From an uncultured Candidatus Saccharibacteria bacterium (lineage in GTDB: Bacteria; Patescibacteriota; Minisyncoccia; Sungbacterales; HO2-52-23): a stretch of DNA of 64,000 nt. Shown here piece after piece: positions 2,242-62,900 of this stretch (position 1 is its first letter; each line of letters opens with the position of its first letter). The stretch is taken from contig CAZPDF010000001.1 of NCBI GenBank assembly GCA_964585475.1, forward strand, positions 1,441 through 65,440, written 5' to 3'. The notes beneath the pieces were generated by a model that worked only from the letters and a program-made list of their open reading frames with translations, searched no databases and had not been told where the DNA came from. A program made the translations under genes and the position numbers.

Positions 2242-2406
2242 AATTTTTTAGCCAATTAGGCCTCTCGACAAAAAGTTATTTACCGGCGAGGGGAGGATTC
2301 GAACCTCCGGTACCATTGTTGGTACACCTGTTTTTTCCCGATTTGTCCAAAATTTCGATTCAATTTGAAGAAGAAATTTTGGCAACAAATCGCAATCCCG
2401 TTCAAA

Positions 2407-2723
2407 ACGGAGGCGAGAGGATTTGAACCTCTGAGGGGATTTCGGTTGCCTTCTCGGCAAACCCCAGGGCCGACTTTTGTAAAACGTTCGCAAGGCGCAC
2501 TTAAATAAAGTAGTCGGCCCGCGAAACGATCGGTAATCGTTTCGCCCAGCCGGTTTCTTGCCCCGCACTAAAATTTGGATTTTCGGAAGCGGGAGGATTC
2601 GAACCTCCGATACGGTTTCCCGTATAACGGTTTTCGAGACCGTCCCATTCAACCACTCTGGCACGCTTCCAAATTTTTAGTGCGGGGTCGAGACCGGCGC
2701 TTTAGACCACTCAGCCACGCCTC
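2407..2723 (-). pseudogene. interrupted tRNA-Ser(CGA)-like gene (5' exon-like 2687-2723; 3' part 2407-2555) hosting the intact tRNA-Ser
   Basis: The 5' part GGAGGCG TG GCT GAGTGGTCTAA AGC G CCGGT CTCGA is canonical through position 36. The 3' part AAACCGG ... CAGAGG TTCAAAT CCTCT CGCCTCC G has a perfect 7-bp acceptor pairing. An extra ~90 nt, possibly a second insert, sits between the anticodon stem and the variable/T arm. Confidence 0.5.
2584..2669 (-). tRNA. tRNA-Ser(CGA), type II with long variable arm; no encoded CCA
   Basis: GGAAGCG TG CCA GAGTGGTTGAA TGG G ACGGT CTCGAAA ACCGT TATACGGGAAACCGTATC GGAGG TTCGAAT CCTCC CGCTTCC G. It is flanked by the inverted repeats 2560-2577 and 2668-2686. 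Confidence 0.85.
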
Positions 2724-2934
2724 CGTTTTGTCCGGGACGAGACCGTCCCATTGTTTTGCCTTCGTCGGCAAAACCCAGGGAAATTTTTTACGTTCGCACG
2801 GCTCCGCCGGCTCGCTAAATTTCCCGCGAAAGTCTATAGCTTTCGCCCACTCTGGCATCCCGCCAAATTTTTAGTGCGGGGTCGAGACCGGCGCTTTCAA
2901 TCGGACTCAGCCACCCCACCCCAAGGCGCTAGCT

Positions 2935-2963: not shown

Positions 2964-3032
2964 ACCGGCCGCCCTGCCGAAGGCACGGCTACGGCCGCCT
3001 TGGGGCGACCTGCCTCTAACGGGGTCAATGTA

Positions 3033-5064: not shown

Positions 5065-5236
5065 TTTATCCGTCCTCTACGGCTGTAAGCGAGCTGTTTA
5101 GAAAATAGCACTTTCCATAAAATTTGTCAAACCAGTTAGAAAAACGGCGGAGATGTATGAAGAATTAAATTATTTGCGGCGTCAGCGGAATTTAACAGCA
5201 ATTTGGATTCAGCAGTTTTTCTCTAACGGGGTCAAC

Positions 5237-8997: not shown

Positions 8998-9038
8998 CGA
9001 GAAAAACGAATACGCCACCCGGGTGGCGTATTCGTTTT
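8998..9038. terminator. bidirectional rho-independent terminator
   Basis: AAAAACGAATACGCCACCC GGG TGGCGTATTCGTTTT, a 15-bp stem with U-runs on both strands. Confidence 0.7.
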
Positions 9039-9159
9039 GGTGGGCAGTGAAGGAATCGAACCCCGTAGCAGAACCTTCGGTTCGCTACGGGGCAGGCCTA
9101 CGGCCTTCGCGGTGTAAACGCGACGCTCTTCCGGGGATTCTTCTATTTCGAGTGTAAAT
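9039..9159 (-). other. tRNA-Val-like element with genomically encoded 3' CCA (fragmentary or unusual tRNA)
   Basis: Minus strand contains a second copy of the Val anticodon arm TCGCG TTTACAC CGCGA, a GGCCGTAGGCC hairpin, a 9-bp hairpin CCCCGTAGC..GCTACGGGG, a T-loop-like GGTTCGATTCC and ...CACTGCCCACCA. No cloverleaf 5' acceptor partner was found. Confidence 0.3.
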
Positions 9160-9231
9160 TGGGCGCTCAAGGGATCGAACCTTGGGCCTTCTCGGTGTAA
9201 ACGAGACGCTCTACCACTGAGCTAAGCGCCC
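9160..9231 (-). tRNA. tRNA-Val(TAC)
   Basis: GGGCGCT TA GCTC AGTGGTA GAGC G TCTCG TTTACAC CGAGA AGGCC CAAGG TTCGATC CCTTG AGCGCCC A. Confidence 0.85.
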
Positions 9232-9235
9232 AAAA

Positions 9236-9667: not shown

Positions 9668-9668
9668 A

Positions 9669-9740
9669 TGCGCGCTGAGGGGATTGAACCCCCGACCTAC
9701 TCTACGTCAAAGAGTCGCTCTACCACTGAGCTACGCTCGC
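9669..9740 (-). tRNA. tRNA-Val(GAC); two acceptor-stem mismatches
   Basis: GCGAGCG TA GCTC AGTGGTA GAGC G ACTCT TTGACGT AGAGT AGGTC GGGGG TTCAATC CCCTC AGCGCGC A. A4:G69 and G7:A66 do not pair. Confidence 0.55.
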
Positions 9741-9822
9741 AAGTGTAACGGGGCAAGCTACCGCCTAATTTGATGAATTAGGCGAGCCTCGCTCAGCTTT
9801 GATGAGCGGGAGCCAAACGCCC

Positions 9823-11788: not shown

Positions 11789-11976
11789 TGGCCCCAATGG
11801 GATTCGAACCCATGTACTGGGCTCTTGCCCTCCCACTTTTTTGTTTGCCGCCACCGGGATTCGAACCCGGGTACCGGGCTTGAAAAGCCCGTGTCCTAGA
11901 CCAAGCTAGACGATGGCGGCGTCAAAAGTGGGAGGGTGAAAAAAGCCCATGTCCTAGGCCTCTAGACGATGGGGCC
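11789..11976 (-). repeat. nested tRNA-Glu locus: Glu-type tRNA-like gene split in the anticodon loop (5' half 11937-11976, 3' half 11789-11824) by an IR-bounded insert carrying the intact tRNA-Glu
   Basis: 5' half GGCCCCA TC GTCT AGAGGCCTA GGAC A TGGGC TTTTTTCA. IR CCCTCCCACTTTT / AAAAGTGGGAGGG, then CAAG A. 3' half GCCCA GTAC ATGGG TTCGAAT CCCAT TGGGGCC A, with a perfect 7-bp acceptor pairing between the halves. Confidence 0.6.
11846..11920 (-). tRNA. tRNA-Glu(TTC)
   Basis: GCCGCCA TC GTCT AGCTTGGTCTA GGAC A CGGGC TTTTCAA GCCCG GTAC CCGGG TTCGAAT CCCGG TGGCGGC A. Confidence 0.85.
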
Positions 11977-16847: not shown

Positions 16848-17159
16848 GTGTGGACCCGGCGGGACTTGCACCCGCTTTCTCGCTTACCAAAGGCGAAATT
16901 TTACTCCATAAACTACAGGCCCAGGGTCCACAGAATAAAGGTAAAACAAAAGAAGCCCCTTTTCAAGGACTTCTTTTGTTTGGTAAGCGAGGACCCGCAA
17001 TTTATGCGAATTCCGCCTTGTGACTCCATTATACTCTTGCCAACTTTTATGTCAATAGGAAGTATTAACAGTAAAATTTGGTATCAATAAGCCCTTCACC
17101 CCGATTACGGCGGTTCGAGCGATCGCCCATCCGAAGCTCAAAGAACGAAGAAGAGTTGT

Positions 17160-28568: not shown

Positions 28569-28750
<182 letters not shown>

Positions 28751-37190: not shown

Positions 37191-37261
37191 TCCGGGGTCG
37201 TCTAACGGTAGGACACATGCCTCTGGAGCATGGTATCTTGGTTCGATTCCAGGCCCCGGAG
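37191..37261 (+). tRNA. tRNA-Gln(CTG)
   Basis: TCCGGGG TC GTCT AACGGTA GGAC A CATGC CTCTGGA GCATG GTAT CTTGG TTCGATT CCAGG CCCCGGA G. It is followed by TTTTGTGCGGGAG, which resembles the CCCCGCAC repeat terminus. Confidence 0.85.
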
Positions 37262-37833
37262 TTTTGTGCGGGAGACGCGGAAATTGGGGGCAAAACGCAA
37301 AATGCTTTGCGTTTTGCGGGACTGCTACATTAAATCCGCGAGCTAACGAGCGTAAAAAATAAAGGCAGTCCCGGGAATTTGTGAAGGAACAAATTGATTC
37401 TCTGTCCCGGAGTTTTATGATAGAACTTATCTATGGAAAACCCAATTGAAAAAGGCCCTGAACGGATCCTGACAAAAGAAGACGTCATGGAGGTTATTGC
37501 TCGTCATGCGGAAAATGCTATCCTCGTTCGAGAGTTGTCTGACGAGCAGGGACTCTACTTACTTGAAGTAAAAGTAGAAGGCAAAGAGTCCGATGAAATT
37601 ATCCAATATCAATATATGAGGAAAGGAAGGTTCCCAAACCACAACGAAGCATCAGAAACTGCTATTCATGCTGTGTATTATCAAGGTGAAACGCCAGTTG
37701 GTGGAGATAAAATTGCTGTTTATAAATCTGAAATGGGGGGCTGGGAAGAAGTAGAATAAGTTCCAACATCGTCCCACAGCCGTAGAGCCCTTGCGATTCC
37801 TACCGAGATGGGTCATGCGCTATATCCACAAAA

Positions 37834-38541: not shown

Positions 38542-38890
38542 GACGCAAGGCGTCTAGCCTTTTGAGGGCCTCATTTAAGTTAAAATAACCCCTACCAAGA
38601 CCCCCGCCTTCGGCGGAAGGTACCTGATTCACCGTTAATCGATACTTGAGGAGGCCAGTCGGATCTAGTTTTAAAATATGTGGGAAGATTTTTTAGCAAA
38701 TTATCTCGCTTCGCTCGCATCGGCCCTCACCTTGGCGCTTCTTGGTTTCGGGTCGTATAAAATTTATAAGAGGAGGAAGCGGGGTGCGGGGAAATATTAA
38801 TAGATGAGGTAACCCTTAAATCGCTGATTGAACTTTGTTTTTTGGCTCCCGGATATGATAGGATGGAATCGGGGTGGCGCTTGACTACTT

Positions 38891-43080: not shown

Positions 43081-43267
43081 ATTACTATTTAGGTGGCCCA
43101 CGCACTAATTTCGTAAAGATGTTTATCTTATTGCGGTTAAACATTCGTGGTATCGCCTCCGGCTTACCTAGAGGCCAATAAATACTTATTGCTAAAATTA
43201 GTGCGGGGCATAAGTTTTGTATCCAAAATTTCTTCGCTTAAGGGCTTTAAATTTTGGACAAAGCCTT

Positions 43268-47106: not shown

Positions 47107-47368
47107 GCACTCAATTTATTCTGCTATGTATTATGTCTATGTGATTCGTAATCGGAAGTCGCGGGAAACCTATATCGGTTATTCCGACGACTTGAAACGG
47201 AGGTTACGAGAACACAAGGATAAAAATCCGGAGCTTCTGTATTACGAAGCATACAAAAGCGAGAAGGATGCAAGGATACGGGAGAAAAAGCTGAAGCAGC
47301 GGGGGACAAAGCATCCGCTGGCTCAAAGAAAGATTGAAGTACAGTTTAGCAGAATAAATTGAGTGCTC
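47107..47368 (+). mobile_element. GIY-YIG nuclease ORF bracketed by perfect 21-bp inverted repeats
   Basis: GAGCACTCAATTTATTCTGCT (47107-47127) and AGCAGAATAAATTGAGTGCTC (47348-47368) flank the 78-aa ORF. Confidence 0.5.
47126..47362 (+). CDS. GIY-YIG nuclease-family protein
   Basis: MYYVYVIRNRKSRETYIGYSDDLKRRLREH, the GIY...YIG motifs with conserved Arg and Glu. Confidence 0.75.
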   Translation: MYYVYVIRNRKSRETYIGYSDDLKRRLREHKDKNPELLYYEAYKSEKDARIREKKLKQRGTKHPLAQRKIEVQFSRIN

Positions 47369-54412: not shown

Positions 54413-54562
54413 GTCAACCCCGCACCTTTTATGCGCTAGGCCACCTCGCGAGCACCGGATTCTTATACCTATTCGGCACTTACTCTATACAGAGTTAATC
54501 TCGGCATACAGTGTACCTGTGAGGTGGCTGGTGCGATGCGGCGCATAAAAGGTGCGGGGTCA
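54413..54562. repeat. MITE-like element with perfect 24-bp terminal inverted repeats (GTTGACCCCGCACCTTTTATGCGC)
   Basis: Arms at 54413-54436 and 54539-54562. Inner IR GCCACCTC/GAGGTGGC. The termini contain the CCCCGCACC motif shared with the tRNA-locus repeats. Confidence 0.65.
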
Positions 54563-55075
54563 ACTAATCCCTTGGTTTGACGAAAATTCATTGTAGGTTT
54601 ACTTTTGAAGCAAGACCCTTTGGAGTAAAAGAAGATGAATGGGGCAAAGATCTTCTGCCTTCGATGCGAGAAAGAAATAAGTTCAGCGAATCATGAGTGT
54701 GATTTCGAAGCCGCGACAGGTTTTTCCATAGTGAGTGCGTTTAAGGACTCATTTTCACATCGTCCCCTGAAGCCAAAATCAATATGGAAGTTCTTTGTGG
54801 TTTTAGGGATCCTCGGCATCCTTGCTTTGCTTATTGGTGTATTATTCTGATCTGGCGAGTTTCCCGGACTGCCGTAGCAAATTTTCCTTCACTTAGGCCC
54901 TTAGCAGATAGTTAAACTTTGGACAGGCAACTCGCTTGTCTTTTTGTATTTTGTTTCCTGCGATATCCACACGCCTTCCAAGAGCCGGTTGAGGCAATGG
55001 TTGGAAACGCTGGCGTGGGTTCCGAAACGCGCCGAAGCAAGAATCCCGCAGGGGCCTTAAAGTTTTCCAGAGACA

Positions 55076-55103
55076 GGCAGTCGAAATCTGGCTGCCTTTT
55101 TAT
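55076..55103 (+). terminator. rho-independent terminator
   Basis: GGCAGTCGAAATCTGGCTGCC TTTTTATTT. Confidence 0.55.
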
Positions 55104-55104
55104 T

Positions 55105-55262
55105 TACCCCGTTACAAGAAAGCCACGGGTGTAAGCCCGTGGATGAATTGCGCCGTTCCTGCCAGCCTTAAGATAAAATGCCACGAGCGTAAGCTCGTGG
55201 TCGCCTTGTAACGGGGTTTACCGGGAAACCCCGCACGAAGTGCGGGGAGGGTGTCATTTAAT
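55105..55262. other. structured non-coding element: 12-bp closing helix CCCCGTTACAAG/CTTGTAACGGGG, twin hairpins with YGTAAG loops, then CCCCGCACGAAGTGCGGGG hairpin
   Basis: CCACGGGTGTAAGCCCGTGG and CCACGAGCGTAAGCTCGTGG hairpins inside the closing helix. No ORF. Confidence 0.4.
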
Positions 55263-60529: not shown

Positions 60530-61040
60530 TTTTAATCACGCGTTCTGCGTTCAAAAATTTAGGTAGAGTCCTTAAAAAGAGTGCGGCCGGATCCAGAAGG
60601 ATCGGCCGCATGTTGAGGAAGAATATGTGTTCGCGCTTTTTTTCGCGCGTGAATTGTTGGGAAGGAACGGAAATCTGGTGGAGAGTCGGCGCAAGGTCCG
60701 AAGAGGGCGATTGGTTCGCCCGGGGCCGTGGTTCTTTGAAAACCGACAGATCAGCTTGCAGGCGCCGACCCTCCAATGATTAATTTTGCGCCGCTACATC
60801 GCTAGCCGCAAGTGTTGGTTATCCACAGGGCTTTGTCCAAAATTTGGAGTGAGTACGCGCGAACAAATTTTGGTTACAAAACCTGTGCCCCGCTCTAATT
60901 TGAGTAATGAACATGTTTTGTCGTTGAGTAAGCCGCAGGCGTTACCGTGGGTTAAGCCAGGAAATGCTGCTCAAGCCTCAGACGAAATTAGGGCGGGGCT
61001 AAGGGCTTTGTTGAAATTCCGGCAAAGAAAAAAGAGATCT
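60530..61040. ncRNA. ~500-nt GC-rich structured non-coding region, candidate ncRNA of unidentified class
   Basis: Nested helices GGAGAGTCGGCGC..GCGCCGACCCTCC, GCGGCCGGATCC..GGATCGGCCGC and GGGCGATTGGTTCGCCC. Only low-complexity ORFs overlap it (60786-61085, 60525-60776). No RNase P, tmRNA or SRP consensus was recognisable by eye. Confidence 0.3.
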
Positions 61041-62534: not shown

Positions 62535-62556
62535 TTATTTTAAAATTTTGTTAAAC

Positions 62557-62689
62557 CCCGTCACCAAAATTTCGACTAATCTTTAGTGCCGTCTTCATGT
62601 ATTGCAAGGCCAGCCGTCCCCGCAGAACCCAGTAGTACACTAACGTACTCCGAGGGATTAATAAACGGCAGTCGAAATTTGGTGCGGGG
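62557..62689. repeat. MITE-like element with CCCCGCAC-type terminal inverted repeats, overlapping the 3' end of the DUF2905 gene
   Basis: CCCCGTCACCAAAATTTCGAC (62557-62577) and GTCGAAATTTGGTGCGGGG (62671-62689). The last 11 codons of the 62658-62900 ORF lie inside the right arm. Confidence 0.55.
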
Positions 62690-62900
62690 TAAAGATTAAA
62701 AACAAAATTGAGAAGAGGGTACTTAAAATTATGCTCGTTCCGATTGGAAAATAAAACGTAAAGTTTTGCCGCTCAATCAAGATGTCCCCGGGAAGTTTCC
62801 CCAAAGACCCCGCCTTTCCTGTAACATCCAGCCCGAGGATAATGAATAGTACCCCCAAGAATATAAGAAGAATACCCAAGAAACTCATACTTAATATCAA
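62658..62900 (-). CDS. DUF2905-family small membrane protein
   Basis: 80 aa, two TM helices, GKLPGDI motif. Confidence 0.55.
   Translation of the reverse strand: MILSMSFLGILLIFLGVLFIILGLDVTGKAGSLGKLPGDILIERQNFTFYFPIGTSIILSTLFSILFLIFTPHQISTAVY

Follow-up and report, generated by a model that had tools for sequence, protein, structure and literature searches.

Bacterial hairpin repeats include miniature inverted-repeat transposable elements (MITEs) such as Correia/NEMIS, ERIC and RUP, and doublets of repetitive extragenic palindromes (REPs), the REPINs, which are mobilised by REP-associated tyrosine transposases (RAYTs). Elements of the IS91/HUH rolling-circle type make no target duplication and have asymmetric ends, with a target-derived CTTG/CAAG tetranucleotide at one of them. 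Archaea possess disrupted tRNA genes with multiple bulge-helix-bulge introns as well as split and permuted tRNAs. Here we analyse a 64-kb stretch of contig CAZPDF010000001.1 from an uncultured bacterium ("the window", meaning the whole stretch), in which short hairpin-ended elements carry complete tRNA genes and lie inside other tRNA genes of the same anticodon. We consider it probable, although by no means certain, that these elements are non-autonomous mobile cassettes, that each makes good the gene it breaks with the tRNA it carries as cargo, and that repeated invasion leaves a series of decaying shells. No published description of nested bacterial tRNA genes or of tRNA-carrying hairpin elements was found in the literature searched.

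The cassettes resemble MITEs and REPINs in being short (60-150 nt) and non-coding, in having inverted ends that fold into a long hairpin, and in being present in numerous divergent copies, some of them solo arms or hairpins without cargo, with no transposase of their own. As in MITEs, the same arms turn up in different host genes and at different positions, and the corresponding sites are empty in three relatives (L001, L086 and L114). Three of the four tRNA-less copies in the window have 4-nt direct repeats on their flanks (TCAA, TTTA, TAAA). Unlike MITEs and REPINs, the cassettes carry a complete tRNA gene and insert in tRNA genes of the same anticodon, and their tRNA-carrying copies have an asymmetric 4-nt tail and no target duplication. 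They also differ from the REP/REPIN-RAYT system in that their arms are headed by CCCCG or TCCCG where REPs have GTAG, and no RAYT (Y1_Tnp) was matched among the open reading frames (ORFs) of the window. The lack of target duplication, the asymmetric ends and the CTTG/CAAG at one end recall IS91 and may offer a lead, but here the tetranucleotide travels with the element, and neither a Y2 nor a Y1 transposase was found in the window. Archaeal disrupted tRNA genes likewise have inserts at several tRNA positions and complementary sequences beside tRNA pieces; however, the present organism is a bacterium, bulge-helix-bulge geometry is absent and the insert is a whole tRNA of the same anticodon. We describe the cassette as a MITE/REPIN-like non-autonomous element with a putatively self-complementing tRNA cargo and a cognate-gene target, and do not assign it to a named family.

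Among published systems, the nearest in concept is the tRNA-dependent lysogeny of mycobacteriophages, where the essential tRNA gene broken by the phage is made up for by a copy that the phage itself supplies (Guerrero-Bustamante & Hatfull 2024, PMC10865867). By analogy, survival here would also depend on the cargo tRNA. Those phages, however, are 40-60 kb long and use a tyrosine integrase and direct-repeat attachment (att) cores, whereas the present insert is a non-autonomous hairpin cassette of ~130 nt, mostly tRNA, and repeats into nested shells. Group I introns in the tRNAs of Patescibacteria (2026, PMC13011429) are self-splicing, longer than 200 nt and detectable with group I models. They share with the cassettes the phylum, the interruption of the anticodon loop (including position 35/36) and the fact that standard tRNA annotation misses them. 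In contrast to these introns, the inserts here are a plain helix plus a tRNA, only tRNAs emerge from Rfam scans that cover the group I model, and an intact copy is always present.

Four nested tRNA-Ser(CGA) genes

The focal locus lies at 2284-2920 on the minus strand (Table 1). The original prediction, made from the sequence alone, had proposed a MITE-like family with tRNA cargo in some copies and had recognised an inner tRNA-Ser gene with its arms; it missed that tRNA genes of the same anticodon and orientation are nested here up to four deep. The arms are indeed present, as inverted repeats of 18 and 19 nt with the sequence CCCCGCACTAAAA(A)TTTGG on both sides of an intact tRNA-Ser(CGA) gene (D), which scores 57.5 bits against the Rfam tRNA model. 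Their unequal lengths give the hairpin a one-base bulge. Below, we call arms plus tail a vehicle (V1 for the present one), the tRNA gene between the arms its cargo, the two together a cassette and the interrupted genes shells.

The host of the V1 cassette is a second tRNA-Ser(CGA) gene, shell B, which it interrupts in the anticodon loop; the 5' half of shell B ends ...GGTCTCGA and its 3' part starts AAACCGG. In-silico removal of 2557-2687 restores the loop CTCGA+AA, and when el3, an accessory element in the variable arm, is removed as well, ARAGORN calls tRNA-Ser(cga). Shell B is itself enclosed by a vehicle of a second type. Over 20 nt including the acceptor stem its arms are 90% complementary, and they follow the CTCG of a third gene, shell C, in whose anticodon loop they lie. 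The same vehicle type also surrounds a nested tRNA-Cys gene just outside the window (in L081). Shell C has lost its 3' half and contains el3 (~105 nt, three hairpins) in its D loop; its acceptor and D arm are those of the intact tRNA-Ser(CGA) gene of relative L082.

Between shells C and A stands a further copy of the left V1 arm, which had been predicted one nucleotide away (2862-2880). Shell A and Z, the two halves of the outermost gene, form 7 of 7 acceptor pairs (two of them G-U) and have one G-A mismatch in the anticodon stem. When long introns are allowed, ARAGORN reads shell A and 2284-2333 as one tRNA with a 548-nt "intron", and after in-silico excision it reads shell A as tRNA-Ser(cga). 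The acceptor of shell A, GGTGGGG, equals that of the plain orthologous tRNA-Ser gene of L114 and is close to that of L086 (GGTGGGA); shell A is the ancestral resident gene, and D is presumably the working tRNA-Ser copy of the stack. Integrity drops from the inside outwards: D is intact, B has perfect stems and two inserts, C lacks one half, and A has one mismatch and two G-U pairs. Upstream of the stack, no promoter site scored above threshold.

One vehicle with different cargos and positions

We scanned metagenome contigs with the right arm and tail (CCAAATTTTAGTNCGGGGCARG) and obtained 18 loci, one of them a chance match inside a protein gene, leaving 17. V1 arms surround tRNA-Ser(UGA) in L097 and in L098, with which L100 is identical in sequence, and tRNA-Ile(GAU) in ten loci, and wherever the host shell is preserved it has the anticodon and orientation of the cargo. 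The left arm begins CCCCG and the tail side reads ...GGGGCAAG. Cutting exactly CCCC...GGGG+CAAG restores the host loop in each V1 case: CTT|GAAA (L088) and TTT|GAAA (L098) at position 34/35 of Ser(UGA), CTGA|TAA at position 35/36 of Ile(GAU) (L096, L104 and L106), CTCGA|AA at position 36/37 of Ser(CGA) in the window, and GGTA|GAAC in the D loop of Ile(GAU) (L095). On the excised shells ARAGORN returned Ser, Ser and Ile tRNAs. From this exact excision at four loop positions it follows that the CCCCG[C/T]AC vehicle has constant boundaries and a variable position in the host. Insertion sites overall are mostly anticodon-loop positions 34/35 to 37/38 and sometimes the D loop, and the loci show that insertion into a loop splits the resident tRNA gene.

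One vehicle can hold several cargos (V1 arms with Ser or Ile, CCCCGTTAG arms with Val(UAC) or Thr), and cargo with the acceptor GGAAGCG occurs in four different host genes. Cargo and host have the same anticodon and are co-oriented in at least 19 nests, representing eight isoacceptors, and the vehicle is sometimes flipped relative to its cargo. Cargo-less copies occur at non-tRNA sites (L099, L111) and inside dead shells, where some are antisense (window 9061-9096, L092, L095).

Shells are dispensable and decaying, with halves missing (shell C, L108 and the fragments in L082), stem mismatches (three in the outer shell of L095 and two in the Thr shell) and extra cargo-less hairpins. L108 has an intact tRNA-Ile gene, a right arm and, behind it, the 3' half left from an older gene, as a deletion between the repeated 5' halves would be expected to produce; such a deletion accounts for the pattern of a fragment next to an intact gene. 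Covariation in the arms is only suggestive: at one variable pair seven combinations match and two do not, in a sample biased by the search pattern. Phages were considered as a vector for the cassettes and rejected: the V1 arm is absent from IMG/VR, and the arm of another vehicle, V4, gave one cargo-less hairpin and three chance matches there.

Orthologous sites in related genomes

Window proteins such as PBP1, GatB, ClpB and MacB are bacterial, and the homologues of GatB and of the DUF4446 protein place the organism in Patescibacteria near Candidatus Sungbacteria (Parcubacteria/Sungbacteria-like candidate phyla radiation, CPR). L081 and L115, assembled independently from the same population, match the window at 99.98-100% identity; because the assemblies agree, the nested structures are not assembly artefacts.

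We compared the tRNA-Ser gene upstream of the DUF4446/IF-2/RbfA genes. It is plain in L086 (complete genome CP066690.1) and in L114, nested by one level in L088, and present in L082 as a 5' fragment with an intact gene whose acceptor is that of shell C; the window has four levels. Upstream of gatB, L001 has a plain, syntenic tRNA-Glu gene, and in L082 a tRNA-Glu gene at a locus of its own is nested with the junction motif seen in the window. The relatives exhibit every state at orthologous sites: plain, nested, and fragment plus intact gene. Flanking arms occur on 3 of 7 tRNA genes in the window and on 7 of 19 in three relatives, as against 0 of 36 in 80 GatB loci (1.3 Mb) of other Patescibacteria, where none of 38 tRNA genes is nested and the four arm matches are A/T-only low complexity. 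The nested-cassette phenomenon is confined to this lineage.

At 12689-12888 of L086, two REP-like hairpins (ACCCTGCAC... and ACCCAGCAC...) come after tRNA-Leu(UAA), and behind them the 3' half of this tRNA is repeated perfectly over 50 nt; the event is either very recent, or gene conversion is still going on.

Explanations of the nests

That the cassettes behave as mobile DNA is supported by the recurrence of the same arms and tail across genomes, cargos and positions and by the empty sites of the relatives. In the mobile-cassette explanation, a vehicle consists of two inverted arms of 13-19 nt, which begin CCCC or TCCC and continue with an A/T run, and a 4-nt tail (CAAG or CAGG), and many vehicles hold one complete tRNA gene. 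We infer that this cargo complements the disrupted gene, taking over its function and probably being read from its promoter. Insertion into a non-cognate single-copy tRNA gene would kill the cell, as would a wrongly oriented one, and hence neither is ever seen; cells would survive only when the cargo replaces the broken gene, which would produce the matching anticodons and the co-orientation. The next invasion could then strike only the sole intact copy, the previous cargo, and so build a Russian-doll stack, while point mismatches, new insertions and deletions that join repeated halves would erode the outer shells. The mobilising enzyme would be encoded elsewhere. It might be one that recognises folded single-stranded hairpins, given that the one-base bulge is conserved, no target duplication is made, the tail is asymmetric and tRNA loops are preferred.

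Several results weigh against this explanation. Orthologous sites are empty in relatives, as expected of the insertion polymorphism that had been proposed as a check, but no presence/absence polymorphism was seen inside the source population (L081 and L115 compared with the window). Of target-site duplications, also proposed as a check, none was found on tRNA-carrying copies; 4-nt direct repeats flank three of the four tRNA-less copies noted above. Domains of a mobilising enzyme were found neither in the window nor as a recurrent feature beside 13 metagenomic nests. It is not accounted for how one vehicle comes to match varied cargos to their targets. Survivorship alone would predict some cargo-bearing cassettes at neutral sites, yet none was seen at a non-tRNA site. 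Simple excision of the Glu and Val(UAC) vehicles leaves a 9-nt loop. Finally, most shells have perfect stems and insertion-type damage only, as functional spliced genes would.

The last point would suit a new class of bacterial tRNA intron, in which the helix-plus-tRNA insert is removed from the RNA and outer and inner tRNAs both function. RNase P and RNase Z would free the inner tRNA before trimming and ligation, and the locus would be a tRNA-in-tRNA operon. This is doubtful, and so is the wider proposal that the hairpin-plus-tRNA inserts, el3 and the small hairpins together form a protein-dependent intron class, with halves held by the arm helix religated from one precursor. Excision does restore 7-nt loops exactly in the Ser and Ile genes, inserts are mostly in loops and always sense when they bear a tRNA, and pairing in the el3 hairpins, and perhaps in the arms, is kept through compensatory changes. 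Moreover, Patescibacteria are rich in tRNA introns (PMC13011429), and a LigT-type 2'-5' RNA ligase gene lies near one relative's locus. However, each interrupted gene is redundant, with an intact gene of the same anticodon inside it, half-shells occur without partners (shell C, L108, L082 fragments), and some shells have mismatched stems (L095 and Thr). The 9-nt Glu and Val loops, the variable splice position (34/35, 35/36, 36/37 or D loop) of an element with fixed ends and the presence of the same vehicles outside tRNA genes also argue against splicing. Apart from noise, Rfam scans yielded nothing but tRNAs, whether the cut-off was the gathering threshold or E<=5, and group I introns and other known RNAs were rejected on this basis. 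Archaeal-type splicing was rejected as well, the window being bacterial; by hand, the junction of shell B and cassette D shows no bulge-helix-bulge but a 5 x 6 nt internal loop beside a continuous helix of at least 8 bp.

It also seems improbable that the nests are non-mobile, having arisen by local tRNA duplication and vertical inheritance, with the arms acting as leader-trailer stems that signal RNase III-type processing. The arms begin exactly at tRNA position +1 and would lengthen the acceptor stem, and inner and outer genes sometimes have identical arms (the anticodon and T arms in L096). Yet the tested tRNA genes with neither a shell nor a remnant of one lack such stems (Gly, Val-UAC and Gln in the window, and the 36 of other Patescibacteria), identical 19-nt V1 arms enclose the unrelated cargos Ser and Ile, the same cassette sits at different positions in different host genes, and relatives have empty orthologous sites.

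Fragments beside intact genes do resemble attL/attR (the Gln 3' end at 37396-37419, the 50-nt Leu repeat of L086, the 5' fragments of L082), and element-borne complementation by a same-isotype tRNA is documented in mycobacteriophages (PMC10865867). The nests might accordingly be scars of larger integrative elements, phages or islands, that entered tRNA genes by means of a tyrosine integrase, brought along a tRNA of matching isotype and have since been mostly deleted. We judge this very unlikely: the nests are bounded by inverted repeats rather than direct att cores, the inserts are only 110-150 nt long with identical boundaries in many genomes, and no integrase lies near nests in the window or related loci. 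Deletion between repeated outer and inner halves, with L108 as the intermediate, is a simpler source of the fragments.

Chance resemblance among G+C-rich hairpins or terminators could at most apply to the short solitary motifs (38784, the 55229 hairpin) and to several at gene ends, and is refuted for the core elements by the excess of CCCCGCAC (10 occurrences in the window against 1.66 expected, a number reached in 0 of 100 shuffles), by 18-20-nt arms that are perfect or nearly so, and by identical arm and tail in the same tRNA context on 17 independent metagenomic contigs.

Homing by recombination, with the outer halves of the host gene serving as homology arms, was rejected for V1: the same cassette occurs at 34/35, 35/36 and 36/37 and in the D loop, and the stems of its host genes differ.

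If the mobile-cassette explanation is confirmed, a minimal selfish element could find room in a tiny, gene-dense genome by overwriting an essential gene with its own working copy, which looks like a previously undescribed way to do so without host death. The host would then depend on the element, and as one invasion covered another, fossil genes would pile up in a stack that can be dated; in ~130 nt this would be a natural gene drive with the logic of "replace as you insert". tRNA genes in these lineages would be replaceable horizontally, cassette by cassette, and from the constancy of the element ends and the bias towards tRNA loops one would expect a structure-recognising enzyme, so far undiscovered and of possible use in genome engineering. 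If the intron explanation were true instead, there would be a new bacterial RNA-processing pathway yielding several functional tRNAs from one Russian-doll gene. tRNA annotation of CPR bacteria is unreliable at nested loci, where ARAGORN gave chimeric calls.

Search for a mobilising enzyme

A Pfam scan of ~60 window ORFs detected no transposase, integrase, HUH or recombinase domain in the 64 kb, which bears out the earlier statement that neither a transposase nor an integrase is visible there. Nor did an autonomous relative with the same ends and a transposase turn up, either in the window or across ~200 kb from related loci. Nuclease-like matches in the window are limited to a 78-aa GIY-YIG protein (47126-47362, +), which adjoins no element, and an NYN-domain protein. 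Stand-alone GIY-YIG proteins of 72-87 aa lie directly beside tRNA nests in L082 (6564-6800 and 17611-17829) and L088 (5969-6232); as candidates for the mobiliser they were set aside, their link to nests being too weak to use. LAGLIDADG endonucleases are the only recurrent family in ORFs beside the 13 metagenomic nests. These ORFs (L091 706-1335, L095 1146-1775 and others) stand beside nested tRNA-Ile(GAU) and are probably homing endonucleases of rRNA introns, in an rRNA operon that holds tRNA-Ile and tRNA-Ala.

Other nested or fragmented tRNA loci

Glu, Thr, Val and Gln loci of the window show related arrangements.

Table 1 Positions of the features discussed in the text (window coordinates unless a related genome is named)
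Feature	Position	Strand	Remarks
Z, 3' half of outermost tRNA-Ser	2284-2333	-	
Right arm GTTTTGAACGGGA of vehicle around shell B, then 60-nt el-H hairpin	2336-2408	-	
Shell B, 3' part (AA ACCGG ... CGCCTCCG)	2408-2556	-	acceptor end at 2408
V1 right arm	2561-2578		reads CCCCGCACTAAAATTTGG on + strand, CCAAATTTTAGTGCGGGG on - strand
V1 right arm CCAAATTTTAGTGCGGGG with 4-nt tail CAAG	2557-2578	-	same arm and tail in 17 metagenomic loci
D, innermost intact tRNA-Ser(CGA)	2584-2670	-	ARAGORN and Rfam
V1 left arm CCCCGCACTAAAAATTTGG	2669-2687	-	terminal GG = tRNA positions 1-2
Shell B, 5' half	2688-2724	-	ends CTCGA (...CCGGT CTCGA)
Left arm TCCCGGACAAAAC of second vehicle type, beside shell B	2725-2737	-	
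Shell C, 5' part of third tRNA-Ser	2738-2864	-	acceptor GGCGGGA, ends at loop ...CTCG
Left V1 arm copy CCCCGCACTAAAAATTTGG in shell A	2863-2881	-	inserted after CTCGA; right arm lost
Shell A, 5' half of outermost tRNA-Ser(CGA)	2882-2920	-	ends CTCGA (loop positions 32-36)
el3 in variable arm of shell B	2432-2553	-	
Other el3 copies in window	2745-2852; 37281-37406	-; +	
el3 copies in relatives	L082 2430-2550, 6156-6282, 7085-7207; L086 5430-5561, 12519-12644; L100 1446-1564		
Solo arm TTGACCCCGTTAGAG, identical copies	3014-3028; 5221-5235	-	
Intact tRNA-Val(UAC) and older Val(UAC)	9038-9232	-	intact gene 9159-9232, then 3' two-thirds of older gene 9038-9127
Intact tRNA-Val(GAC) and older Val	9668-9822	-	intact gene 9668-9741, 5' fragment of older gene 9810-9822
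Outer tRNA-Glu shell	11789-11976	-	encloses intact tRNA-Glu(UUC) 11846-11920
Decayed outer tRNA-Thr-like shell, 2 stem mismatches	28569-28749	+	encloses intact tRNA-Thr(CGU) 28618-28691
Intact tRNA-Gln(CUG) with remnants	37191-37419	+	
Lone motif GGTGCGGGG	near 38784		no partner arm
Solo V1-like right arm AAAATTAGTGCGGGGCATAAG	43194-43214	+	then el-H-like hairpin
tRNA-less element, perfect 20-bp inverted repeat ACCCCGCACCTTTTATGCGC	54414-54563		TCAA direct repeat on both sides
Element with arms ACCCCGTTACAAG (55106-55217)	55103-55247		range includes adjacent hairpin; TTTA/TTTA flanks
Short hairpin CCCCGCACGAAGTGCGGGG	55229-55247		beside 55106-55217 element
Element with arms CCCCGCTCTAATTT / AAATTAGGGCGGGG	60888-60998		no flanking direct repeat
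Element 62557-62689, arms CCCCGTCACCAAAATTTCGAC / GTCGAAATTTGGTGCGGGG	62553-62693		range includes TAAA/TAAA flanks

The arms of the Glu cassette (CCCTCCCACTTTT / AAAAGTGGGAGGG plus CAAG) are at 11924-11936 and 11824-11840, its junction TTTTTCA|CCCC...GGGG|CAAGA recurs in L082, and 48 nt upstream of the shell that encloses it there is a sigma-70-like site in the window. The Thr arms that had been predicted are present (CCGTTAGAAA / TTTCTAACGG, 28604-28613 / 28696-28705); the CCCCGTTAGAAAT vehicle of this locus carries tRNA-Val(UAC) in L086.

In the older Val(UAC) gene an antisense cargo-less hairpin, CCTG-CCCCGTAGC...GCTACGGGG (9061-9096), lies at the junction of T stem and loop. The intact tRNA-Val(GAC) gene is preceded by a flipped vehicle arm, CTTG-CCCCGTTACACTT (9741-9757), and a complete version of this arrangement, inserted in the D loop, exists in L082 and L086. 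For both the Glu and the Val(UAC) vehicles the junction reads loop(32-35)+TTCA|...|CA(A/G)G+N38. None of the schemes tried for these TTCA...CAAG junctions as the product of a single insertion fitted. The frame TTCA...CA(A/G)G, or CTTG...TGAA when flipped, surrounds the Glu, Val(UAC) and Val(GAC) vehicles and in effect replaces a CA dinucleotide of the target (window 11824-11940; L082 6270-6425; L086 5170-5290; L111 3960-4000); a cargo-less copy at a non-tRNA site shows the same frame.

Downstream of tRNA-Gln the predicted motif was recovered at 37262-37274, where it resembles a decayed right arm; the third el3 copy follows, and 24 nt from the 3' end of tRNA-Gln are found again, displaced, at 37396-37419. 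On the same contig just before the window start, as seen in L081, tRNA-Cys(GCA) is nested in tRNA-Cys. Two further elements are seen there (L081 12610-12700 and 12890-12990, just beyond window position 1): the outer Cys shell has a second hairpin element, with non-tRNA cargo, in its D loop (TCCCGTTAGAAGT...ACTTCTAACGGGA), and an element CTTG-CCCCGTTAGAAAT...ATTTCTAACGGGG with ~60 nt of A/T-rich cargo precedes tRNA-Leu.

Elements without tRNA and solo arms

The hairpin-ended elements, with or without tRNA, are 110-150 nt long with arms of 13-20 nt. Two of those without tRNA, predicted at 54413-54562 and 62557-62689, exist, the second as described; in the first (repeat arms 54417-54436 / 54541-54560, z = -6 to -10) the perfect inverted repeat is 20 bp and not 24, the outer bases being the TCAA direct repeat. 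The elements at 55106-55217 and 60888-60998 are additional to those of the original prediction. The predicted hairpin near 55228 was found, as were the looser relatives near 3017 and 5222, and a motif expected at 38777 lies nearby but stands alone. The over-representation of CCCCGCAC against shuffled controls holds within the window, and CGGGGCA[AG]G has 6 matches there against 0.8 expected from mononucleotide shuffles.

The proposed MITE-like family is real insofar as hairpin-ended, lineage-specific elements exist and some carry complete tRNAs. It has to be amended in that it comprises more than one vehicle, the arms being of CCCCGCAC-, CCCTCCCAC-, CCCCGTTAG- and TCCCGGAC-types, that lone motifs account for a few of the members listed (38784, 55229), and that assignment to MITEs proper is not established, with no known autonomous partner and no target-site duplication on tRNA-carrying copies.

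Accessory hairpins and minor observations

el3 is ~110-125 nt long and forms three hairpins, with the core GGGAAATTTAGCGAGCC...GCGAACGTAAAAAATTTCCC-TGGG-TTTCGCC-GAGGAG-GGCGAAA. Every copy found is in sense orientation and either within a tRNA shell or adjacent to one (D loop, variable arm, 3' region), and Rfam gave no match. Among nine copies, pairing in its first hairpin is kept by compensatory changes at 7 of 9 pairs. The 60-nt hairpin el-H (TTGCGATTTGTTGCCAAAATTTC...GAAATTTTGGACAAATCGGGA) is at 2336-2395 (-) in the window and at 12443-12510 in L086, in both cases directly 3' of a vehicle arm ending ...ACGGGA. The two copies are near-identical, although the neighbouring proteins are only 56% identical. 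A similar hairpin lies at 43215-43260 of the window.

Rfam detects a tRNA (42 bits) at 16851-16922 (-) that ARAGORN missed. It has an unusual T loop (TGCAAGT), an apparent 9-nt anticodon loop (CTTTGGTAA) and an acceptor stem lengthened by the flanking bases GTGGACCC...GGGTCCAC. In the first 6000 nt of the window the GC skew is negative to ~4 kb and then positive, and tRNA genes are on the minus strand at 2-12 kb and on the plus strand from 16 kb on; the start of the window may be close to a replication origin or terminus. In L001, the closest GTDB relative, the GatB match (377-2626) covers 2250 nt for a 511-aa query, which suggests an insertion of ~700 nt, an intein or intron, in gatB.

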